Shown: in pieces, positions 958-10,687 of the stretch
How the letters are laid out: each line of letters starts with the position of its first letter
Position numbering within the stretch: position 1 is the stretch's first letter
Source: a virus
Length of the DNA: 11,550 nt
Reading direction: 5' to 3' (one strand)
UHGV virus genome: UHGV-0196030
Program-made: the position numbers and the translations under genes
Notes under the pieces: generated by a model
The model's input: only the letters and a program-made list of their open reading frames with translations
What the model was told of the DNA's origin: nothing
Database searches by the model: none

Positions 958-2067
958 TTGCTGGTCCATCCCAATGGCAGCAAATACTGGCGATTCCGGT
1001 ACTGGATAGACAAGAAAGAGCGATTACAGGCCATCGGGGTATATCCGCTGATTAGCCTCAAGGAAGCCCGCAAACGCGCCACAGAGAGCCGTTTACTGAT
1101 AGCCCAGGGAATTGACCCAATGGAAGAAGCACGCAAGGAGAAAGCCATTGATGCGCTCAACATGGCGGCAAGTTTTAAGACCGTGGCGGAGGACTGGCTG
1201 ACTACTAGGGTGAGCGGTTGGTCAGAGTCCTACACGAAACAGGTCAGGACGGCGCTGAAAAATGACGTTTACCCCGTGCTGGGTAAGCGTTCAATCGTCG
1301 ATATAACCGCCCGTGATGTTCTGGCATTGCTTCAGAAGAAAGAGCGCACCGCGCCGGAGGCGGCCCATAAGTTACGCCAGCGTATCGGGGAGATCTTCAA
1401 ATTTGCCGTTATCACCGAACTGGTTAACCGGAATCCGGTTGCAGATCTGGATACGGCATTGAAAGCCAGACGCCCAGGCCATAACGCATGGATACAAATT
1501 AGTGAAATTCCGGCCTTCTACAAAGCCCTTGAGAGAGCCGGGAGCGTACAGATTCAGACGGCAATACGCTTGCTTATATTGACGGCATTAAGAACGGCAG
1601 AATTGCGAAAAATGCGGTGGGAATGGGTAGATCTGAGCACGGCAACAATCACCCTACCCGCTGAAGTCATGAAGGCCCGCCGACCGCACGTAGTCCCGTT
1701 ATCCCGGCAAGCGGTCGAGCTATTACAGGACCAGTTTACCCGCAGCGGGTACAGTGCTTTCGTCTTTCCGGGCCGATTCATGGATAAGCCATTGTCAGCA
1801 AGTGCCATCCTTAAAGCCCTGGAGCGTATCGGGTACAAGTCGATCGCCACTGGTCATGGTTGGCGGACCACCTTTTCAACGGCGCTTAATGAGTCTGGCA
1901 GATACTCACCAGACTGGATCGAAATCCAATTGGCCCACGTTCCGAAAGGTGTGCGCGGTGTATATAACCAGGCCGCCTACCTGAAGCAACGGCGGGTAAT
2001 GATGCAGGACTACGCGGACGCTATTGTTCTGATATTGGCTGGTGACGGTAATCCGCTGGAACCGTGA
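958..2067 (+). CDS. intZ: P4-family tyrosine integrase (site-specific recombinase); ORF shown from the first in-frame TTG, but N-terminal homology continues upstream to about 868
   Basis: N-terminal arm-binding-type sequence ...KDKPYKLTDSLTPGLFLLVHPNGSKYWRFRYWIDKKERLQAIGVYPLISLKEARKRATESRLL... and C-terminal catalytic region ...HGWRTTFSTALNESGRYSPDWIEIQLAHVPKGVRGVYNQAAYLKQRRVMMQDYADAI (H-x-x-R and catalytic Tyr as in P4 Int). Symbol given by locus analogy to K-12 CPZ-55, not by sequence identity check. Confidence 0.88.
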   Translation: MLVHPNGSKYWRFRYWIDKKERLQAIGVYPLISLKEARKRATESRLLIAQGIDPMEEARKEKAIDALNMAASFKTVAEDWLTTRVSGWSESYTKQVRTALKNDVYPVLGKRSIVDITARDVLALLQKKERTAPEAAHKLRQRIGEIFKFAVITELVNRNPVADLDTALKARRPGHNAWIQISEIPAFYKALERAGSVQIQTAIRLLILTALRTAELRKMRWEWVDLSTATITLPAEVMKARRPHVVPLSRQAVELLQDQFTRSGYSAFVFPGRFMDKPLSASAILKALERIGYKSIATGHGWRTTFSTALNESGRYSPDWIEIQLAHVPKGVRGVYNQAAYLKQRRVMMQDYADAIVLILAGDGNPLEP

Positions 2068-2074
2068 ACTATAA

Positions 2075-2100
2075 GGCCGGATTCGTCCGGCTTTTCTTTC
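2075..2100 (+). terminator. Rho-independent terminator after the integrase gene
   Basis: Stem GCCGGA (2076..2081) / TCCGGC (2086..2091), loop TTCG, followed by TTTTCTTTC, 8 nt after the TGA stop at 2065..2067. Confidence 0.6.
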
Positions 2101-2104
2101 GCTA

Positions 2105-2135
2105 ATTATTCCATTATTCCAATTAAGTGGAATAA
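2105..2135. promoter_or_regulatory. Operator-like site: tandem ATTATTCC x2 followed by a perfect 8-bp inverted repeat TTATTCCA-n6-TGGAATAA
   Basis: ATTATTCC at 2105..2112 and 2113..2120. Inverted-repeat arms at 2114..2121 and 2128..2135 with a 6-bp spacer, in an AT-rich intergenic region upstream of the 2277 CDS. Confidence 0.35.
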
Positions 2136-2214
2136 ATTATTCAATATCAAGAACTTAAATCCATGTTTGCAACGAAAGATCCAGAGTTCGAAAATAGGAT
2201 CAACACAAATAAAA

Positions 2215-2244
2215 GCCCCCGGCATGTTGCAGCATTCCGGGGGC
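2215..2244 (+). promoter_or_regulatory. Stable stem-loop in the putative 5' leader of the 2277 CDS
   Basis: 8-bp GC stem GCCCCCGG (2215..2222) / CCGGGGGC (2237..2244) with a 14-nt loop, about 30 nt upstream of the AAGGAG Shine-Dalgarno. Confidence 0.3.
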
Positions 2245-2276
2245 GGTATGAGAAACAAGCTAAAGGAGAATTTCTC

Positions 2277-2786
2277 ATGTCTGATATGCTAGCAGTAGAA
2301 CAAGAAACAAACAATGATGTTCGTCAATTTTTAAATAAAATTAACGAGTTACGGAATAAAGCACCCAAAAACGAAGAGACTAAACACGAAGAACACACGC
2401 CAGATCATTACGAGGCAAAACAGCAGGAGCAAGCCTGGCGTGGCAACCTGCGCTACCTGGATACATTAAACCGACTTGATGAGGTATTGCCTCGCAAACT
2501 GTACGAAAGGTGGGAGAAAGAACATACAGTCAACGACGAGGCCGTGCTACGCGCCCTTTGCTACTTTGCTGGTACTGGCAAAAACTCACAGTTGGGATGG
2601 TGCAGGGTTGGCAGGGGAACAATCGACAAGCGAGCCAGGCTATCAAAAAACACGGTTAAAAAATGCCTCGATCGTCTGGTCCACCACTTCAAACTGGTTG
2701 AGCGTACTGAAGGCTATATACCCGGATCGGCAGAAAGGGAATGCAACGAGTACCAGCTATTATTCAAGCCGTACAACATGAAATAA
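2277..2786 (+). CDS. Hypothetical protein, 169 aa, with a C-terminal winged-helix-like DNA-binding region (possible replication initiator or regulator)
   Basis: Strong SD AAGGAG (2263..2268) 8 nt before the ATG at 2277; the ORF-track start at 2163 has no SD. C-terminal segment GWCRVGRGTIDKRARLSKNTVKKCLDRLVHHFKLVERTEG looks like a winged helix. Followed by a terminator and an iteron cluster. Confidence 0.55.
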   Translation: MSDMLAVEQETNNDVRQFLNKINELRNKAPKNEETKHEEHTPDHYEAKQQEQAWRGNLRYLDTLNRLDEVLPRKLYERWEKEHTVNDEAVLRALCYFAGTGKNSQLGWCRVGRGTIDKRARLSKNTVKKCLDRLVHHFKLVERTEGYIPGSAERECNEYQLLFKPYNMK

Positions 2787-2794
2787 CGGAATCA

Positions 2795-2817
2795 GGCGGG
2801 CAATGTTCCCGCCTTTT
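2795..2817 (+). terminator. Rho-independent terminator after the 2277..2786 CDS
   Basis: Stem GGCGGG (2795..2800) / CCCGCC (2808..2813), loop CAATGTT, then TTTTCTTT. Confidence 0.65.
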
Positions 2818-2840
2818 CTTTGCCTTAATTCCATGAATTC

Positions 2841-2964
2841 AGGTGGGTCAAAAGTTGCCGTTAAGGTGGGTCAAAAGTTGCCGAGTAAGAATTCTACTAT
2901 TAAGAATTCTAGGCGACGGGAGTTTTTTAGCCTCCCGGTCGGTCATAGAGAGTCGCCTAGAGTT
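2841..2964. repeat. Iteron-like repeat cluster: two identical 20-bp direct repeats, two TAAGAATTCT repeats and a nested palindrome
   Basis: AGGTGGGTCAAAAGTTGCCG at 2841..2860 and 2864..2883, identical, 23 bp centre to centre. TAAGAATTCT at 2886..2895 and 2901..2910. Inverted repeat CTAGGCGAC (2909..2917) / GTCGCCTAG (2952..2960) enclosing hairpin CGGGAG-n9-CTCCCG. Confidence 0.6.
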
Positions 2965-3793
2965 AAAACAGAAGAATTGTTTCGCCGCCTGATAGGTCGG
3001 CTGGTTGCGAGCATTAACCATGCTGATTAGCGCAATCATTTCCAGCAAGCTGGAAACGCCCATTCACTCACGCACAACCTGAACAGCAGACCAACAGAAC
3101 ATCATGGCGATTCGTTCATGGGTAGCGCGGTATATCTCAAATGTGACGCCTCTTGTTGCTGGACCTTCGGAAAACACCATGGAGACGAAAGTATTCAATC
3201 TGGTCTGGCAGCAGGGAGAGCTTCGCTTCGCTCGTCTCCTGGGGCCAATGCTCAATGAAACGACGTAAGGCACGGAGCGCTCACCATAGGCAGACACATA
3301 AACATCTGAGAGCGCACCTTCTATCGCGCTACGCGCTCAATAAAAACCAACGACACCGCCATCCTGCCTGACCGATGTTTTTAACCAGCGTATACAGAGA
3401 AACAGACAATAGCATGAAATCAGCGTATATCCAGGTGCAGACGGCACTATCACACAACGCACAGCAGGCTTAAGTGACCACTCAGGAAACTTTATCCCCG
3501 CCACCGACTAACGCAAACCGTCCTGACCGCGCCAAATTCGAAAGGAATGCTACCTTAAACGCGATTAACACACATAAGCGCCACACTTACTTACCTGAAA
3601 ACTTCACAGCGTCACAGCGCGTTTTAGACACGTTAAAATCGATGCGATTTCATTAAATTTTTTTCACTCGCCTGAATGGTGGCAATCAGGACTGATTGCA
3701 ACATTGCCCCGCCTCGATACTGAGCGCATAATAAATACATACATTAAGCGGAAACGTCATTAACAGATTTGGAAAAACAATGGGTTACACATC

Positions 3794-4414
3794 ATGCGCA
3801 TATCAAAGCAGCAACGCCAAATCCTCGACTATCTGGCAGAAAACGAATCAATCACAGCACGCCAGGCGGCAGATCTCGTTTATGGCGGCAACGTTACCCG
3901 CGTACAGGTCGATGCAGCCCGCCGTTCACTGATGGCGCTGGTCAGCAATGGGCTAATCATGAAACAAGGCCGCGCTTTCGTAGCTGAAAGACATATCAAT
4001 CACGCTTATAGCCAGGACGTTGAAGAGTTGCGCCGTCAGATCCTTTGGGTATTCAGCAAAGAGGGGCAGGACTATCTCATTTCTGAGCGTCCAAATTACG
4101 CCGCCAAAGAGTTAACAGTAAGCGGATTGTCGTGCGCACTGGATTATCTTGTCGGTGAAGGTTGCGTTACTTACAAGCAGCTATGGCACGCCCTGAACAC
4201 GCTTGTAGAAGATGGTTTACTCATTGCCACGCGTGAGAATATCGAATACTGGATAATGCCGCGTTCAGGTCGCCGCAATCATGCGCGGTATATTTCAGGC
4301 AACAAATACAGAACGCCTGACTTTAATCCGACACAGGAAGATCGGGACCGTGCCGAAATGATGTGCAGGGAACGGGAGAAAAGATTCATGGACAAGTTGT
4401 TTTCGATGCGGTGA
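3794..4414 (+). CDS. Hypothetical protein, 206 aa, with an N-terminal winged-helix/HTH-like region (putative DNA-binding protein)
   Basis: Long ORF with protein-like composition. N-terminal ISKQQRQILDYLAENESITARQAADLVYGG...RSLMALVSNGLIMKQGR resembles MarR/winged-helix recognition helices. Weak SD. A strong terminator follows directly. Confidence 0.5.
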   Translation: MRISKQQRQILDYLAENESITARQAADLVYGGNVTRVQVDAARRSLMALVSNGLIMKQGRAFVAERHINHAYSQDVEELRRQILWVFSKEGQDYLISERPNYAAKELTVSGLSCALDYLVGEGCVTYKQLWHALNTLVEDGLLIATRENIEYWIMPRSGRRNHARYISGNKYRTPDFNPTQEDRDRAEMMCREREKRFMDKLFSMR

Positions 4415-4420
4415 ACACAA

Positions 4421-4443
4421 GCGGGCGCAATGCCCGTTTTTTA
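4421..4443 (+). terminator. Rho-independent terminator after the 3794..4414 CDS
   Basis: Stem CGGGC (4422..4426) / GCCCG (4432..4436), loop GCAAT, followed by T6 (4437..4442), 7 nt after the TGA stop. Confidence 0.7.
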
Positions 4444-4583
4444 TTGCCTTATTCCACGTCAGACGAATCAATCTAATCACACCTGAGCAAATGCATTGCC
4501 AAAAATTTAGGCTGTCAGAATGCGTTTTAGCGCGTTTTAAGGGCATCGAATTTTAATTAATTTTGATGCGGTGATTTGCGGGC

Positions 4584-4671
4584 AAAAAAAATCCAGCCGG
4601 AGAGGGCTGGAAATAGAGACATATCGTTGTAGTTATTAACAGATCACATTTTGAGGCTGAGTATTTACCTC
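4584..4671 (-). ncRNA. Putative small antisense RNA (~88 nt) with its own promoter and intrinsic terminator; contains a 14-nt complement of the HNH gene ribosome-binding region
   Basis: Minus-strand promoter-like hexamers: -35 TTGCAC (complement of 4701..4706), 17-bp spacer, -10 GATAAT (complement of 4678..4683). Minus-strand terminator: stem 4592..4598 / 4605..4611 followed by U8 (complement of A8 at 4584..4591). No ORF longer than about 19 codons inside. Contains the complement of 4643..4656, which is identical to 5090..5103 at the HNH Shine-Dalgarno. Confidence 0.3.
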
Positions 4672-4755
4672 ACTAATATTATCGCGCCGTTATGGTGATT
4701 GTGCAAATCATCTCTTCCAATCACAAAAACGTCATATTCGACAATGAAGCCGTGT

Positions 4756-4784
4756 TTGAACACGTAGGACAATGGGAATAAAAT
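4756..4784 (+). promoter_or_regulatory. Candidate sigma70 promoter for the alpA-HNH operon
   Basis: -35 TTGAAC (4756..4761), 17-bp spacer, -10 TAAAAT (4779..4784). Predicted start near 4791, about 90 nt upstream of alpA. Confidence 0.4.
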
Positions 4785-4823
4785 AATTACATAGGGTTTT
4801 TCTCTTGGCCTATTTTTTCATTC

Positions 4824-4868
4824 AGCGGCGGTTGTTTTTCTCCATATTTCCAGCCGCCGCTCCTTTTC
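4824..4868 (+). promoter_or_regulatory. Leader hairpin with a short U-tract upstream of alpA (possible attenuator)
   Basis: Stem AGCGGCGG (4824..4831) / CCGCCGCT (4854..4861), 22-nt loop, followed by CCTTTTCG, then the alpA SD GAGG at 4872..4875. Confidence 0.3.
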
Positions 4869-4883
4869 GAAGAGGTGATGAAA

Positions 4884-5075
4884 ATGAACGACTTTCCCGA
4901 ATTGATAAGCTGCGAACAAGTCGCTCGACTTTTTTGTGTAAGCAAGCGCACGATTCTCAGGTGGGTAGATAAAATCCCCGGCTTTCCAATCCCTGTAAGT
5001 CCTGAAGGAACCCCGCTCCGCTTTATTCGCAGCGAAATTCTCGAGTATTTCTACAGAGGGCACAACCATAAATAA
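4884..5075 (+). CDS. alpA: AlpA-family phage transcriptional regulator / excisionase-like HTH protein (about 63 aa)
   Basis: Small protein with the AlpA-like pattern ...LISCEQVARLFCVSKRTILRWVDKIPGFPIPVSPEGTPLRFIRSEILEYF. SD GAGG at 4872..4875, 8 nt before the ATG at 4884; in-frame GTG 4875 and ATG 4878 sit too close to the SD. Symbol is family-level. Confidence 0.7.
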   Translation: MNDFPELISCEQVARLFCVSKRTILRWVDKIPGFPIPVSPEGTPLRFIRSEILEYFYRGHNHK

Positions 5076-5111
5076 CGAAATAAAATCCCATCACATTTTG
5101 AGGTAAACATC

Positions 5112-5507
5112 ATGACCAATATCGAAAGATTAGAACGCTGTGCCGATATTATGCGGCGCAGATGGATTTATGACCCTGAAGCGGGTTTATTGTTTAGCCG
5201 TGAAACAAAAGACGTTATCAAAGGCAGCATGACCAATAAAGGGCATTTGGTTGTAACGGTACATGAAGGTAAATTCAAAGTGACACTCACCTATCAGAAA
5301 GCCTGCTATGTATACACATACGGCGCTTATGACGAGACATTATATGAAGTGCACCACGTTAATTTGAACAAACAGGATAACCGCATCAAGAATATTCGCC
5401 TGATGCCGAAAGAAAAGCACCGCCGGATACATAAAAACGTCCGCAAACTTATTCGGCTGGGCCACACACAATGGCTTCAACCGCAATTAATTGAACAATC
5501 ACTATAA
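5112..5507 (+). CDS. HNH endonuclease (HNH_3-type), 131 aa
   Basis: Motif YEVHHVNLNKQDNRIKNIRLMPKEKHRRIH matches the H-H-x-N...N-R...N-(I/L)-R signature of phage HNH_3 nucleases. SD GAGG at 5100..5103, 8 nt before the ATG. Confidence 0.6.
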   Translation: MTNIERLERCADIMRRRWIYDPEAGLLFSRETKDVIKGSMTNKGHLVVTVHEGKFKVTLTYQKACYVYTYGAYDETLYEVHHVNLNKQDNRIKNIRLMPKEKHRRIHKNVRKLIRLGHTQWLQPQLIEQSL

Positions 5508-5524
5508 ACACAGGAGTAAATACC

Positions 5525-5788
5525 ATGCATTCATTAGACAGTTATTTTCAGCGCACGACAGCCCCTAAATCAGCTGCCCAGGAACGCCGTGAGGAATTCC
5601 ATGAGAAAGTGATGCGTTCTGCTGATTATATTGCGGACAAGTTCGTGGAAACGGTTCGTCCACTTGTTGATGAAGTAGCTGATAAACTTCAGTCTGAAAT
5701 GCCGGAAGATATGGAAGGCACTGCAAAGCGGCGACTCATTTGCGAATTAAGTCGTCGTTTTGGCGTGTCAATAAGCGCTTTTAAATAA
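5525..5788 (+). CDS. Hypothetical protein, 87 aa
   Basis: Strong SD AGGAG (5512..5516) 8 nt before the ATG. Tightly packed between the HNH gene and the next ORF. Charged, protein-like composition. Confidence 0.5.
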   Translation: MHSLDSYFQRTTAPKSAAQERREEFHEKVMRSADYIADKFVETVRPLVDEVADKLQSEMPEDMEGTAKRRLICELSRRFGVSISAFK

Positions 5789-5810
5789 TCGAAAAAAGGG
5801 GGGAAAGATA

Positions 5811-6353
5811 ATGGACGCATTTGAGGTACTGGCAAATAAAGGCGCGGAACTGGTAGCACAGCGTGATAAAACCGCCAACGAAGGGGAACGCGCACTGCTA
5901 AATAGACAGATTAAAGCGATCCGTATGGCCCAGTTTAAATTAATCAGCAATGAAGTTATCGAAACAATTAAACCGCAGATCCCACAAATCGTTGCTGACG
6001 CTATTAAAGCCGCCGGACTGGAGAAACGCATTGCCGGGCTAAAAACGAACGCAGAGAAAATGGAGATGCACAAACAGAGCGGTGCTCCGAATCCCGATGA
6101 GTACTTCTCACCGGATGTTGAGTTTATGGCGCAGGTTGAGGAACGTCTGGGTAGCTGTCTCACCGAGGAACAGCGTCGCTATTTTGATGGAGTGGATAGT
6201 TCGGCAGGTATTGACCTGAACTCGTATTTCGGTCGTGAAATTGAGCATTTTGATGCCGCCCCGTCTATGCCGGAGCCAGAAACAGAAATGGCCGCCGATC
6301 CTGAAGCTGAGCAACGGAAACGCGTATTCAATGCGATAGGGATTCGGTACTGA
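5811..6353 (+). CDS. Hypothetical protein, 180 aa, acidic C-terminus
   Basis: G-rich SD (AAGGGGGG, 5796..5803) before the ATG at 5811, which lies 22 nt after the previous stop. Codon usage looks coding. No motif recognised. Confidence 0.5.
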   Translation: MDAFEVLANKGAELVAQRDKTANEGERALLNRQIKAIRMAQFKLISNEVIETIKPQIPQIVADAIKAAGLEKRIAGLKTNAEKMEMHKQSGAPNPDEYFSPDVEFMAQVEERLGSCLTEEQRRYFDGVDSSAGIDLNSYFGREIEHFDAAPSMPEPETEMAADPEAEQRKRVFNAIGIRY

Positions 6354-6404
6354 TCGGATAAAAGAAAGCCGGGAATTACCCCGGCTGACTTAACAATGTG
6401 ACCA

Positions 6405-6779
6405 ATGAACAAATCGGACAAGACAAACAGGATAAGCAGTCTCGAAACAATGTTCGGGAACTATATTAGCACAAGTCCGGAGAAAATCATCATGTTGGCA
6501 CTACGCATCATGCAGGGCATCGCTAAGACCCTCGCAGAACATGTCTTAGACCTGAAACATTCGCCACTGAGCAAACAGGCCATGAAGCGCCAAACGCTTC
6601 GTCTGTGGGCTGAATATTCGCTTGGAACTATCAATAAGCTCATCAATATGAAGTCGAAAGATAATGGCAGTGTCCATGAGTGTAACAGCGAAGAAAAGGA
6701 ATTTGTGAAACGCCTGAAGTTAATCCGCGCCGATATTCACTCACAACTGGCCTCTTGTGGTTGCGATATTGATGACTAA
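6405..6779 (+). CDS. Hypothetical protein (124 aa from ATG 6405; a better-supported start at ATG 6492 would give 95 aa)
   Basis: ATG 6405 has no SD. The in-frame ATG at 6492 is preceded by GGAGA (6479..6483) at 8-nt spacing. The C-terminal region is the same either way. Confidence 0.45.
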   Translation: MNKSDKTNRISSLETMFGNYISTSPEKIIMLALRIMQGIAKTLAEHVLDLKHSPLSKQAMKRQTLRLWAEYSLGTINKLINMKSKDNGSVHECNSEEKEFVKRLKLIRADIHSQLASCGCDIDD

Positions 6780-6808
6780 CAGCGTGCTAACGGGGGGTTA
6801 ATCGCCCC

Positions 6809-6858
6809 TTAGCGATAGCTTAGCTAACTGTTAGTGAGCCTTAGCGACATCTTAGCGA
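6809..6858. repeat. Five helically phased iterons TTAG(C/T)(G/T)A immediately upstream of the terS-like gene (candidate packaging or protein-binding array)
   Basis: TTAGCGA 6809, TTAGCTA 6820, TTAGTGA 6831, TTAGCGA 6841, TTAGCGA 6852: spacing 11, 11, 10, 11 bp. Preceded by a G-rich hairpin-like GGGGGG-TTAAT-CGCCCC at 6792..6808. Confidence 0.55.
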
Positions 6859-6878
6859 CAGTTTAACCGGGGGTAAAT

Positions 6879-7283
6879 GTGGAGACTGAAGATAAAGAAA
6901 TCAATAACTTGCCTGTAAATGGCAACAGGTTAGCGAGAAAAAGGGCCAAATATACCATCGCGCTGGCGGAAGAAATTTGTTTGTTGGTAGCGGAAGGCCA
7001 TAGCCTACGTGAGATCGCGAAGATGCCAGACATGCCATCGTTACGCACTTTAATGCGGTGGCAATATGAACATCCAGATTTCAGAGAGCACATCGGTATT
7101 TTTAAGTGGATTCACGCCCAGGACGCAGCAGAGCAAGCTGTTGAAGCTATCAGAGATGTAGATCTGGAAGCGGAAGACGCGCCACTGAAATTAAAACAGG
7201 CTGAGGCATTAGCCCGCACTTTGTTAGGTCGTGCCAAATTGCTTGAGAGCAAAAACAATCCATTCAACGGGGGTGACAAATGA
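6879..7283 (+). CDS. Phage terminase small subunit (TerS)-like protein, 134 aa, GTG start
   Basis: N-terminal HTH region KYTIALAEEICLLVAEGHSLREIAKMPDMPSLRTLMRWQYEHPDFREHI matches the pattern I recall for TerS-family proteins (Y-T-x-E-L-A-x-x-I-C...G-x-S-L-R-x-I...M-P-S-x-x-T-x-x-R-W). G-rich SD at 6868..6872. Confidence 0.55.
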   Translation: METEDKEINNLPVNGNRLARKRAKYTIALAEEICLLVAEGHSLREIAKMPDMPSLRTLMRWQYEHPDFREHIGIFKWIHAQDAAEQAVEAIRDVDLEAEDAPLKLKQAEALARTLLGRAKLLESKNNPFNGGDK

Positions 7284-7789
7284 GCTTTATGGGTAAACAC
7301 AAGACTGGTGGTAAAGACGACGCACAGGGCTTGTTTAAGGCCGGGAAAAAGGCATCTTTAACGCCGGAAGAAAAAGATAGACAACTACAGCTTAAGCCAT
7401 TCAGCCAGTGGACAAAGCAGGATATCGCGATGTGGCGAGCCGTTAATATTGAACGCTGCCAGGAAGACGTAGACGACGGACTGATGGAAGATTTCGAACT
7501 GGACGATCTGATTAATTGTTGGGCCTTCGAGATCGTCGATGATGCGCTTATCCGTACCCGTACCGCGCCGCCGTGTGAGGAAATGATGCTGGGACTGATG
7601 AAGCCGACTACGGATCTGGTTGTTGGTTACTGTCAGATTGATGGCCTTGATAGCCTTGCCGCCGCCGATACAACCGACTCAATGGAACAAGCCGCACGCC
7701 AGCAACGGAAGATTGAACTGCAACGACGCCTACACCATGAGCGCAACGTACCAGGGCAAGAACTGGAAACCATCCCGCGCCGCCAGTAA
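7280..7789 (+). CDS. Hypothetical protein, 169 aa, translationally coupled to the terS-like gene
   Basis: ATG at 7280 overlaps the terS-like TGA stop (ATGA overlap at 7280..7283). GGGGG (7269..7273) serves as SD. Acidic, Cys-containing protein with no recognised motif. Confidence 0.5.
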   Translation: MSFMGKHKTGGKDDAQGLFKAGKKASLTPEEKDRQLQLKPFSQWTKQDIAMWRAVNIERCQEDVDDGLMEDFELDDLINCWAFEIVDDALIRTRTAPPCEEMMLGLMKPTTDLVVGYCQIDGLDSLAAADTTDSMEQAARQQRKIELQRRLHHERNVPGQELETIPRRQ

Positions 7790-7815
7790 TTTTCGGACAA
7801 GCGGGCGCGCAGCCA

Positions 7816-7841
7816 ACGCCAGGGGCATCCAGACTGGCGGA
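7816..7841 (+). repeat. Hairpin element ACGCCAGGGG-CAGACTGGCGGA, copy 1 (copy 2 at 9976..9999)
   Basis: Stem CGCCAG / CTGGCG conserved in both copies; the loops differ by a 2-nt indel. Each copy lies 10-27 nt after a stop codon (7789 and 9966). Confidence 0.45.
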
Positions 7842-8120
7842 ATATATCAATAGTGCGCATTAGATACATTATGTGAAAAACGACATGAGTATATATCAGT
7901 ACTGATTTTACTGGAAAAACTTGATTTTCAGTATCAATCCCAAAGAAGTATGGCTAATGCAGCTTTATAAGCAATTGATTCTATTAAGCGATGTTTTTTG
8001 TGATTGGTTGAAGCAAACCGGAATACGAAGACAGTGAAGCGGCAATAAACTGTTTCAATGTGAAATTATCAGAGTAAACAACAATTTTGGAGGTGTCCGC
8101 ACAACGCGGATAGCAATATC

Positions 8121-9966
8121 ATGAGTGGAAATCTTGGGACCATTTACTATGAGGTGGACGCCCGCACGGGTAAGCTACTGATGGCACAAGAAGAAGCGAA
8201 TCAGGCTTTTGATGCCATTGAGCGTGGCGCAAAACGTGCTGATAACGGCGTCAAAAAACTGAATACGCAGATGACCAAAACGTCTGCCGCAGTAAAATCA
8301 AATTTCTCATTTGCAATCAAAAACGCATCCTACCAGATAGCAGACCTTGCTACACAACTTCAGATGGGCGGTAATGCCATCCAGGTCTTTGCCGTTCAAG
8401 GGGCGCAGCTTGTCGCTGCATTTGGTACTGGCGGTGCGGTCATGGGTGCGGTCATGGCTATTGGCGGGGCAATTGCCAACAGCCTTACGGATAACATGGA
8501 TGACGCCACGGATAGAAAAATACATTGATGCGCTACTCCGCTACAGCAACGAGGTGCTAACAGCAGAAGAGCGTCAAACGGCGTTAAACGAGGCACTGAA
8601 TGCTGGGGCGTCTGCGGCAGCAATTGCCACTGGCGAAATGCTGATTAAACAGGAGCAGATCAAGCAAGAGAAGCTAAAAGGCAATGAGAACGCTGCGCTT
8701 GATATGGCGCTGGCTGAGGGCAAGTTAACGAAGGCGGATCACGATAGGCTTGTCCAGATGCGAGAAGAAACAAAGGAATTGGAGGAGAACAAACGCAAGG
8801 AAGAAGAGAACGCCAGGGAGAAAGAACGAGCAGCCAAACAGGCAGAAAGCGCGGCGAAACAGGCGGCGAAACAGGCGCAACGCGAACTTGAACAGCTTCA
8901 GAAACGCGGGCAAGGTGTAGCTGACAAGTACAACGTAGAGGGCGCAGCACAGCGTAAACTAAAAGAAGACCAGGAAGCGCTAAATGCAGCAATGGAAGCT
9001 GGCAAAATCAGCACAGAACAATATAACGCAGCGTGGGCCGGACTCCTGAGAACGGAGGCGCAACGCAAACAGCAAGCCGGATGGGATAATCTTGTCAGCC
9101 GGGAAGATAAGCTAAAAGGCCGTGTTGACCCAATCCAGCAGGTGATGAACGAATGGAATGTTCGCAAGCAAATGATGCTCGATTTAGGCGTCACTGAGGC
9201 AACCATGCGGCAAGCAGAGATCGACCACAAAGAACGAATTCTTAACCTTCAGTGGCAGCAATGGCAGGCGCAAAGCGATACTAACGCGCTTGTAGGTAAC
9301 ATGATTGATGGCCTCGCTTCCGGTGCTGGTAGCGCATTTACCGGACTGCTTAACGGATCTCAATCGTTCCAGGAATCACTTGCTAACATCGGAACGACCA
9401 TTATCAACCAGGTTGTTGGAAGCCTTGCGCAGATGGGGGCGGAATACGTTAAACAGCTTGTTATGGGTGAGGTTGCGCAGAAATCAGCCTCCGCATCAGC
9501 TACTGCAACGGCAGCGGCAACAGGCGCATCAATCGCATCATCAATGGCCCCAGCAGCAGCGGCGACAGCAACCGCGACAATGGGTACGGCCCCGATGGTG
9601 GCGATGTCTGCGATGTCGGCATTAATGACTGGCATTACAAGCCTATTTGGCGGACGTCGCTACAACGGCGGCGCGGTTAATGGCGGCAATATGTATCGAG
9701 TCGGTGAAAACAAAGTACCTGAACTATTCCAGACCAATAACGGACGGCAGTACATGATTCCGGGTGAGAATGGTCGCATCATTCCTGGTCGTGATATTGG
9801 TGGCGGTAACGTTAGCATAAACGCGCCTATAACCGTTTACCCACAAAACGGTTGGACCGAACAGGATAGCAAGGCATTGCAGCAGACGATTGAGAATACA
9901 GCGATGCGGTTGATGCAGAGAGAATCAACCAGGCCGGGCGGAATGCTCCAGGGTCGCCGCCGTTAA
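8121..9966 (+). pseudogene. Lambda gpH-like tail tape-measure gene, split by a frameshift near 8516..8528 into 8121..8528 and a second frame running to 9966
   Basis: N-terminal part (...YQIADLATQLQMGGNAIQVFAVQGAQLVAAFGTGGAVMGAVMAIGGAIANSL) resembles the lambda H region FTDVATQLAGGQSPWLILLQQGGQV. Downstream frame has coiled-coil KEEENAREKERAAKQAESAAKQAAKQAQRELEQLQKRG and a Gly/Ala/Thr-rich C-terminus ending GGMLQGRRR (lambda H ends GGLFSGGGR). The two frames are offset by +1, with an A5 run at 8516..8520 just before the frame-0 stop. No other tail genes are present. Confidence 0.6.
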
Positions 9967-10136
9967 CCAAATCCCACGCCAGGGGAACAGACTGGCGGAC
10001 CTTCAAAGACGGTCGCACACCGTGTTTAACATAATTTATTGTTTTTTGCTTGCTCTTATTATTGCAGCCGTTAGAGTTGGCGTGGCAGTTTTTCACCTGT
10101 TTCGCGTGTTGCTGTGTTTTTGGGGAAGAAAAACAA

Positions 10137-10232
10137 ATGAGAAGGCTTATATACCTGGTATTTATGCTATTTGCTATCGGGCAAGCCATAATTTTTATCA
10201 CAATGCTGATCTGTCTGATGCTCTTTGGTTAA
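10137..10232 (+). CDS. Small hydrophobic peptide, 31 aa (MRRLIYLVFMLFAIGQAIIFITMLICLMLFG): candidate small membrane protein or type I toxin-like peptide
   Basis: SD GGGGAAG (10122..10128) 8 nt before the ATG at 10137. Single predicted transmembrane helix after an N-terminal RR. The stop is followed within 10 nt by an intrinsic terminator. Confidence 0.4.
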   Translation: MRRLIYLVFMLFAIGQAIIFITMLICLMLFG

Positions 10233-10240
10233 CTCCACCA

Positions 10241-10260
10241 GGACCCGCGACGGGTTTTTA
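10241..10260 (+). terminator. Rho-independent terminator after the small hydrophobic ORF
   Basis: Stem ACCCG (10243..10247) / CGGGT (10251..10255), loop CGA, followed by TTTTT. Confidence 0.55.
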
Positions 10261-10431
10261 TACCATCATTATTAAATCTATTAATAATCATCAAACCATA
10301 ATTAGCACAACTTATAATCGAGCAAAAATCACACAACCTTGATAAGTTGAGCTAATGGCTATATGTTTTTCTGATGAAATCCTAATGGCGAAAACTTGCG
10401 ACGATACCGAAAAAACCGCGAAAATTGAAGT

Positions 10432-10541
10432 GTTCTTTCTTTTTTTGTTTTTTATTTTTTTATTTTCTCTTTTTCTTCTCTTTCCGGTTCTCTTCTTTTT
10501 CTGGTTTTGGTTTTTTCCTTTTTTATTTTTATTCTTTCTTC
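10432..10541. repeat. Polypyrimidine (T/C-rich) low-complexity tract of about 110 bp; polypurine on the minus strand
   Basis: GTTCTTTCTTTTTTTGTTTTTTATTTTTTTATTTTCTCTTTTTCTTCTCTTTCCGGTTCTCTTCTTTTTCTGGTTTTGGTTTTTTCCTTTTTTATTTTTATTCTTTCTTC; strongly pyrimidine-biased, with only scattered purines. Confidence 0.7.
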
Positions 10542-10687
10542 AGGGTTGTGCTAAAACACACCAAAACATTTTCGCCACAAAAGCGTTAATTTCATCCTGC
10601 CAGACCATTCACTTTCACCGGATACACAGCCGGATATATTCCCACTAACACCCCACCACCCAGCGCCACGCCTGATAACTACCGTAT

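Follow-up and report, generated by a model that had tools for sequence, protein, structure and literature searches.

The DNA analyzed here is a stretch of 11,550 nucleotides from the virus genome UHGV-0196030, called the window throughout. It contains a CPZ-55-type island of ~9.7 kb (window ~958-10500), which lies between eutB and eutA, the site of the cryptic prophage CPZ-55 in Escherichia coli K-12, and the window matches E. coli MB19 at 99.9% identity once a single deletion is set aside. Within the island, a tandem array of TTAGCGA-type repeats runs up to the start of a gene whose product resembles the small terminase subunit (TerS) of phages, hereafter the terS-like gene (Table 1). Comparison of this locus with its relatives gives good support to the inference that the repeats, which are linked to the terS-like gene, are helically phased binding sites of a DNA-binding protein that acts as a multimer.

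The preliminary description of this DNA had listed five heptamers (TTAGCGA, TTAGCTA, TTAGTGA, TTAGCGA and TTAGCGA) starting at 6809, 6820, 6831, 6841 and 6852, one per helical turn. Both the positions and the phasing were borne out: all five lie on the + strand (6809-6815, 6820-6826, 6831-6837, 6841-6847 and 6852-6858), with start-to-start distances of 11, 11, 10 and 11 bp. TTAGYKA occurs 12 times in the window compared with a shuffle mean of 4.1 ± 2.1, a count reached in none of 200 shuffles. No chain of five hits at 10-11 bp spacing arose in 3000 first-order Markov simulations, where the longest chain was of two hits and was seen six times; this is a rough test only, the pattern having been set after the sequence had been seen. 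Base identity at a lag of 11 over 6780-6878 was 0.49 (z = 5.7 against shuffles). The array also proved longer than first noted, with degenerate in-phase units running from the stop codon of the upstream gene, which is contained in the unit at 6777, to the ribosome-binding site (6863-6873). Since units in phase with the core are found at 6777, 6787, 6798 and 6863, the repeat occupies the entire intergenic gap. Its two ends also share sequence, TAACGGGGGGTTAAT at 6788 being a direct repeat of TAACCGGGGGTAAAT at 6864. A sixth exact TTAGCGA at 6930, within the open reading frame (ORF), was considered and discarded as a member of the array, being out of phase and not kept in relatives.

A G-rich hairpin had been described as flanking the array. 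A hairpin does exist, in that 6787-6812 folds at -10.8 kcal/mol (z = -1.8), but it does not mark a boundary that relatives conserve. The fold is weak, is not followed by a T-run and uses the TTAG of the first array unit in its stem. Its counterpart is missing in locus L011, the sole tested relative without a G-run/C-run pair at this place, and loci L007 and L012 fold there with different flanking bases. The sequence is better read as the degenerate 5' end of the array. A scan of 6780-6880 for promoters and terminators predicted none, with no sigma-70-like promoter in or beside the array, and G+C content across the gap (6750-6900) was 0.43-0.53. Between 6700 and 7000 no cosN-like symmetric site was recognised and the inverted repeats were weak; all array units are direct. 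A match to the consensus of integration host factor (IHF), AATCAATAACTTG, lies 20 nt into the terS-like gene, and whether it is part of the array element is uncertain. The window holds four such matches against 0.9 expected, and this one has been lost from L003 but persists in L002, L007 and L009; its conservation is inseparable from that of the peptide EINNL, which it encodes in the otherwise disordered N-terminus of the TerS-like protein.

These data bear on the idea that the repeats act in RNA, the UUAGCGA motifs or pairing of C-runs with G-runs in the mRNA binding a protein or hiding the Shine-Dalgarno sequence and so controlling translation of terS. The array is probably transcribed within the operon, its last unit holds the Shine-Dalgarno sequence, CCCC spacers could pair with G-runs, and the K-12 yffO mRNA was recovered as a ligand of QorA in a screen by systematic evolution of ligands by exponential enrichment (PMC10380284). 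We nevertheless regard such an element as highly improbable. The predicted structure of 6770-6900 was no better than that of shuffles (z = -1.5) and the hairpin at the 5' edge is not conserved. The core TTAGCGA has no complementary partner nearby, the spacers that could pair are the variable part of the repeat, and a restriction to units of 10-11 nt, as expected of helical phasing in duplex DNA, has no obvious rationale in RNA.

The gene that follows the array had been called terS-like from its sequence, and it does encode a true homologue of the Sf6-type TerS, as indicated by matches to Pfam (PF20901, Sf6_terminase; 50.8 bits against a gathering cut-off of 27, E = 2e-13), PHROG (1482, 'terminase small subunit'; 6e-15) and the PDB (3hef and 4dyc, both Sf6 gp1; E ~1e-12), and by structure-model matches; a search of NCBIfam gave no useful matches. 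The protein is homologous to YffO of K-12 (46% identity), for which homology to Sf6 gp1 has been noted earlier (PMC10380284). An AlphaFold2 model (mean predicted local distance difference test score 75) has a disordered N-terminus (residues 1-21) ending in a basic arm, RKRAKYT, followed by a helix-turn-helix (HTH) domain at 27-64 (helices 27-38, 43-47 and 55-64) and a long helical hairpin at 66-123 (helices 66-92 and 101-123). The top six Foldseek matches to this model in the PDB were all Sf6 gp1, with a probability of 1.0 and template modelling scores of ~0.46-0.5. Residues 20-29, spanning the basic arm and reaching into the first HTH helix, align with KAGRPSDY of Sf6 gp1, a segment termed AT-hook-like (PMC10380284). 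Among the type-A loci compared (see below), the ratio of nonsynonymous to synonymous substitution rates (dN/dS) of terS is 0.05-0.17, at dS values from 0.66 up to saturation; such strong constraint marks a working protein rather than debris. The next-best relatives in a library of 1.8 billion proteins (P0012-P0017 and many others) are ~180-340 aa long and carry two to four tandem TerS-type HTH domains per chain, that is, covalently linked arrays of the TerS-type DNA-binding module.

Having established the nature of the gene, we compared the array among related elements, where the preliminary description had proposed that its conservation be checked. The array passed this check: position, register, period and core are shared by eight of eight diverged relatives of the same array type (type A). 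More distant elements of the YffO family, including CPZ-55 of K-12, lack the array or show no more than a weak 11-bp periodicity. Homologous arrays occur in L003, L007, L009 and L011-L014, and L188 has a variant of the window's array. The diverged type-A relatives, for each of which the DNA around the variant was retrieved, have TerS-like proteins with 76-90% identity to that of the window. This close TerS clade is rare, comprising nine protein clusters, occurring in 15 of 5426 complete E. coli genomes and being confined to E. coli; a single-protein scan of genome contigs for the TerS-like protein yielded no confirmed relative. Type-A arrays consist of 5-8 units each, and their 45 spacings are either 11 bp (39) or 10 bp (6), with a mean of 10.87 bp. 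In every type-A relative the last unit begins 16 nt before the start codon and overlaps the Shine-Dalgarno sequence, the terminal unit being TTAGCGGAGGA in other relatives instead of TTAACCGGGGG. Over 17 distinct units, positions 1-7 (TTAGCGA) carry 1.0-2.0 bits of information each and positions 8-11 carry 0.3-0.8 bits.

With synonymous sites of terS close to saturation in these comparisons, a retained core beside drifting spacers points to purifying selection on a binding site and not to a neutral minisatellite; at such divergence, unconstrained intergenic DNA would have been randomised. A slippage-prone tandem repeat that arose in the gap by chance and has no function is very unlikely for this reason, even though copy number varies among near-identical islands (L188 versus the window; L163-L166, L189 and L190), perfect repeats in L007 indicate recent slippage, and public genomes hold scattered, unrelated TTAGCG repeats of 11 bp. 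Besides the retention of the core across synonymously saturated lineages, the fixed register relative to the start codon and the restriction to 10- and 11-bp units speak against it, as do the second, unrelated motif found with the same period at the same position in a sister lineage and the recurrence of an 11-bp periodicity there in distant members of the family. Copy number does change readily, L188 having one 11-bp unit fewer than the window and L007 having four perfect copies, and slippage in these sequences therefore supplies copy-number variation on which selection acts.

The sister lineage (type B; L002, L005, L163-L166, L189 and L190) has a different array at the same spot, made of ATTCGGGGGTA (2-4 copies) and ATTCGCTATCA (0-3 copies), with a final ATTCGGGGGTA fused to the ATG and a period of 11 bp. 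TCGCTA of type B is the reverse complement of TAGCGA, and the G-rich type-B unit resembles the two degenerate end units of the window array. At residues 20-29 of TerS, RKR[AT]KYT[IV]AL is found in nine of nine type-A proteins and RKSAKYGVAI in seven of seven type-B proteins. Array type and N-terminal arm thus co-vary perfectly in 16 loci, a contrast that is in effect one evolutionary event and that, the two DNA segments being adjacent, linkage alone could yield. Beyond the arm there is little difference: across residues 31-75 type-B proteins match type-A proteins (L009 and L014, for example) completely or with D51E as the sole change, and in the full-length TerS of L002 the only differences past residue 31 are D51E and changes at one or two positions near 94-97. 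In all type-A and type-B loci the array adjoins terS, its end being 16 nt from the start codon, as would be expected of the location of a pac site.

Neither neighbour of terS follows the array in this way. The YffP-like protein does not track array type, that of L002 (type B) being almost the same as its counterparts in L009 and L014 (type A), and it was rejected as a specificity partner because it is the same in both types. The small protein encoded upstream does cluster by array type, but L214 and L216 share 55 of the last 57 residues of the window's version and have a different TerS clade and no TTAGCGA array; we consider it unlikely as the array binder, given that in these two loci it is decoupled from the array. 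In a metagenome contig, L185, a deletion seen at 2380-2500 of the contig has brought chromosomal DNA from the eutR side directly against the array's 5' edge (GGTTAATCGCCCC...). The junction corresponds to ~6796 of the window; the left half of the island and eutK-eutB are lost, and the array, terS and the yffP-like gene are kept. Decoupled from the upstream protein and from the YffP-like protein, and kept with terS in L185, the array travels with TerS type. In L214 and L216 (1293-2374) the upstream protein is followed by a true yffN homologue and then by a third TerS clade (MPPRKRKLTPRLAEEICLL...), an arrangement from which it follows that the packaging module is mosaic, with recombination joints inside small genes. 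The upstream gene of the window had itself been considered as the homologue of K-12 yffN, an assignment rejected because the true homologue is this separate gene. Window positions 6400-6656 are, on their own, common to >200 E. coli genomes.

Further afield the picture is mixed. In five more distant loci (L017, L196, L015, L016 and L198), autocorrelation at 10/11 bp peaks in the gap before terS, at a value that none of 500-1200 windows of equal length in the locus reaches. Repeats of 'AATTA' and 'AAAAC' picked out by eye in the gaps of L017 and L015 were discarded, as they reflect only a compositional 11-bp periodicity. No 10/11-bp periodicity was found upstream of terS in L191, L197 or the third TerS clade (L214, L216 and L217), and none of the distant phage TerS homologues L167-L180 has a visible array upstream; the array is therefore not general to Sf6-type terS genes. 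As far as these sequences go, helical periodicity before terS is common in the family without being universal, and the explicit array belongs to the A/B clade. Searching viral and genome collections for TTAGCG-N5-TTAGCG-N5-TTAGCG gave >140 matches, which are unrelated tandem repeats because none lies near a TerS homologue (tblastn).

The remainder of the island (Table 1) has a satellite-like gene set. Of the features of phage-inducible chromosomal islands (PICIs), it shows an integrase, an AlpA-like HTH protein and a TerS-like protein in ~9.7 kb, without capsid or large terminase (TerL) genes, and it lacks a clear primase or Rep gene. The tape-measure and HNH endonuclease genes are atypical of such a set, and several other small genes belong to no assigned family. 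No large terminase, portal or capsid gene was found among the island proteins by annotation and profile searches, and the TerL of a helper phage would be required, as it is for the TerS of Staphylococcus aureus pathogenicity islands (SaPIs). The terS-like and YffP-like genes are probably translationally coupled, because they overlap by 4 nt. Relative to MB19, the tape-measure gene has a frameshifting internal deletion of 527 bp (compare L001, 10114-10640), and elsewhere only eight positions differ.

Table 1. Features of the CPZ-55-type island discussed in the text (window coordinates).
Feature	Position	Strand	Remarks
Core array	6809-6862	+	TTAGCGAtagc, TTAGCTAactg, TTAGTGAgcc, TTAGCGAcatc, TTAGCGAcagt
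Degenerate 5' end of array	6777-6808	+	In-phase CTAACAG (6777), CTAACGG (6787) and TTAATCG (6798)
Terminal unit TTAACCGGGGG and ribosome-binding site	6863-6878	+	GGGGG at 6869-6873 is the Shine-Dalgarno sequence
terS-like gene	6879-7283	+	134 aa; GTG start at 6879, in agreement with RefSeq for strain MB19
IHF consensus match AATCAATAACTTG	6899-6911	+	Codons 7-11 of terS
Small hypothetical gene upstream of array	6405-6779	+	Annotated start 6492 in MB19
YffP-like gene	7280-7789	+	4-nt overlap with terS stop
Tyrosine integrase	958-2067		Profile match
Pseudogene, weak winged-helix (HTH_24) match	3638-4414		Internal stop; annotated as pseudogene in MB19
AlpA-like HTH protein	4875-5075		Profile match
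HNH endonuclease	5112-5507		Profile match
Tail tape-measure gene	8121-9966		Split into ORFs 8121-8528 and 8347-9966

Several observations concern the other forms and the ends of such islands. An intact, 206-aa version of the pseudogene at 3638-4414 is present in L013. In the other island forms compared (L015, L016, L018 and L164), relatives with the HTH-HNH-...-TerS-YffP module occur as 8-10 kb circular non-mobilizable 'plasmids', in which a serine recombinase replaces the tyrosine integrase, and one copy sits between insertion sequence (IS) elements on an IncFIB plasmid. Locus L017 is the Klebsiella pneumoniae plasmid pHK02-026 (conjugative, IncFIA/IncR), which at 86570-93044 carries an entire K-12-type CPZ-55, comprising the integrase and yffL-yffS, flanked by elements of the IS66 family and by the macrolide-resistance cluster mph(A)-mrx-mphR. 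Where the window's island ends on the right, before eutA, 10431-10530 is a T-rich stretch of low complexity with imperfect 8-, 11- and 15-bp repeats; it overlaps a spurious-looking Phe/Leu-rich ORF (10355-10648) and may include the right attachment-site region.

The gene content also bears on the term 'iteron' used in the preliminary description, which is a misnomer because nothing origin-like lies near the array. Tandem direct repeats of 11 bp do recall parC of plasmid R1 and iterons in general, and the relatives of the island recorded as 8-10 kb circular plasmids must replicate. A replication origin or a centromere-like partition site is, for all that, extremely improbable. There is no adjacent Rep, primase or Par NTPase gene: among the island proteins no Par NTPase or adaptor and no clear primase or Rep was found, only a sub-threshold DnaD-like match 4 kb from the array. 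The G+C content across the gap leaves no A+T-rich unwinding region, plasmid-borne relatives have no discrete array, and the register of the array is tied to the terS start codon. A parC-like centromere is further disfavoured by the lack of a predicted promoter in the array and of an adjoining Par operon.

Taken together, the comparisons suggest that the array is probably the binding site of the island's own TerS-like protein. It would then present 5-9 head-to-tail sites, each a 7-bp core TTAGCGA with a 3-4 bp spacer, at a mean period of 10.9 bp. TerS proteins of the Sf6 type form rings whose N-terminal HTH domains face outwards, about one DNA turn apart, and successive subunits would each contact one unit while ~55-90 bp of DNA wraps along the rim; the period, slightly above 10.5 bp, would call for some unwinding or a superhelical path. 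Sf6 TerS (gp1) is an octamer (PMC9611059), and the arrays never exceed 8-9 units. Direct rather than inverted repeats also suit a cyclic head-to-tail oligomer rather than a dimeric repressor. The complex of TerS and array would mark the island DNA as a substrate for the large terminase of a helper phage; by analogy with satellites of the SaPI and PICI kind, which encode a TerS themselves, a pac-like recognition site for the helper's motor is the likeliest function, and the chances that the array serves packaging in this way are about even. The same complex would probably hinder transcriptional read-through into terS. Autoregulation of this kind, as proposed for SPP1, is a probable side effect of TerS binding, because the array fills the entire gap up to the terS ribosome-binding site.

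A purely regulatory operator without any packaging role would make use of the same roadblock: a DNA-binding protein of the island would coat the array, block transcription from the upstream operon and so set the levels of the TerS-like, YffP-like and tape-measure proteins. Its binder could be the TerS-like protein itself, possibly 'domesticated' in a grounded prophage, or another small protein of the island; the motif differs from one island lineage to another, which makes a regulator of the host unlikely. The array spans the whole gap between co-directional genes, the final repeat and the Shine-Dalgarno sequence overlap in all relatives, and there is neither a TerL gene nor a known helper phage. 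Direct repeats of 7+4 bp are, moreover, the format of head-to-tail winged-helix regulators such as PhoB and ArcA. It also counts for an operator that K-12 YffO may have taken on a new DNA-binding role in a grounded prophage (PMC10380284) and that TerS binding at the SPP1 pac has itself been proposed to regulate transcription (PMC4737164). We consider a solely regulatory role unlikely nonetheless. With no sigma-70-like promoter predicted in or near the array, and with arrays such as that of L007 too G+C-rich for a -10 element, only a roadblock is possible, and purifying selection on the TerS fold, including the oligomerisation hairpin, together with the satellite-like gene set (integrase, AlpA-like, HNH and tape-measure genes), points to a packaging-related lifestyle.

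The closest known counterparts of the TerS-binding, pac-like site that we favour are the pacL boxes of the Bacillus phages SPP1 and SF6, direct repeats bound by the TerS ring G1P that lie just upstream of the TerS gene and run into its start. In those phages the binder is likewise a ring-shaped HTH TerS with DNA-binding domains about one helical turn apart, for which wrapping of DNA has been proposed; the direct repeats of the SPP1 pac span promoters and the start of the TerS gene, and binding has been proposed to switch between transcription and packaging (PMC4737164). The SPP1/SF6 boxes are few, dispersed and poorly conserved even between the two phages, with little specificity on the part of the DNA-binding domain, whereas here 5-8 contiguous units share a sharply conserved 7-bp core; unlike in SPP1, moreover, the protein is of the Sf6 (Shigella) type and the element has no TerL. 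In lambda, three 16-bp R elements in mixed orientation are bound by winged-helix dimers, and the nicking site cosN adjoins. There, cosB (R3-I1-R2-R1, bound by gpNu1) includes an IHF site that assists binding, recalling the IHF-consensus match 20 nt into terS, but the units described here are 11 bp long, all direct and more numerous, and no cosN-like site was recognised.

As a small island with its own TerS and no TerL, presumed to redirect the motor of a helper, the element resembles those with SaPI TerS-S, pac-type PICIs and the phage-inducible chromosomal island-like element (PLE), whose pac site is intergenic, lies 628 bp upstream of the packaging gene cluster and is needed for transduction (10.1101/2024.04.22.590561). 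Those islands differ in that their helper phages are known and their transfer has been demonstrated; no helically phased tandem array is described for their pac sites, and they do not share the tape-measure gene of the CPZ-55-type island. Repeats of 11-bp period are also found in parC of R1, bound by ParR, and in operators of the Pho/ArcA type (the Pho box has a 7-bp core and a 4-bp spacer). In both of these, many copies of a small protein bind head-to-tail and form a curved nucleoprotein array upstream of an operon. Unlike them, the array described here has no ParM/ParA gene, no response regulator and no promoter within it, and its motif is island-specific. In the literature found there is no contiguous, sharply conserved 11-bp-phased array abutting a terS start and no joint swap of array and TerS arm, and no description of CPZ-55-type islands as satellites was found in the literature on CPZ-55.

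Besides the single-event nature of the A/B contrast, several observations weigh against binding by TerS and a role in packaging. Tandem Repeats Finder detected no discrete repeat in the K-12-type (L017) and plasmid-type (L015) gaps, and the third TerS clade is without any periodicity. The array had no blastn match among the INPHARED phages and was not found beside terS in IMG/VR, and no helper phage with the same array was found. Copy number differs among near-identical islands, as in any slippage-prone tandem repeat. The island has no TerL, portal or capsid protein and no known helper, and the window's copy appears partly decayed, with the pseudogene and the frameshifted tape-measure gene. 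From the biochemical side, the characterised TerS proteins of the pac type (Sf6, SF6/SPP1 and P22) show weak DNA binding in vitro, with little preference for particular sequences (PMC4737164, PMC9611059), and the TerS of HK97 threads DNA through its channel and does not wrap it (PMC10370121).

A bolder form of the TerS-binding reading is a sequence-specific 'spool', in which the HTH and basic arm of each subunit of an octameric ring would read one 7-bp unit and 5-8 units would wrap around it. Together with the first 30 codons of terS, the array would then constitute an exchangeable packaging-specificity cassette (types A, B and others), swapped among competing CPZ-55-type satellites. We offer this tentatively and regard it as rather doubtful. 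If the spool were true, it would be the first natural case of the disputed nucleosome-like model of TerS-DNA binding written into DNA, and if the cassette were true, swapping would keep packaging orthogonal among the members of an unrecognised family of E. coli satellites (the CPZ-55 type) and to helpers.

Recognition of DNA by TerS has been called 'elusive and controversial', with pac-type TerS proteins, Sf6 gp1 included, binding weakly and independently of sequence in vitro (2022 review, PMC9611059). The system described here offers a short, defined and naturally variable target beside an Sf6-type terS gene, along with a sister lineage in which the array and a few arm residues have changed together, and is suited to addressing models of wrapping, threading and interdigitation, the residues that read DNA and the number of ring subunits engaged. 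Were the array only a roadblock operator, its significance would be modest. The analysis also suggests a family of satellite-like islands, each with a packaging specificity of its own, in which the 'cryptic prophage' CPZ-55 of K-12 would be a member; this would bear on gene transfer in E. coli.

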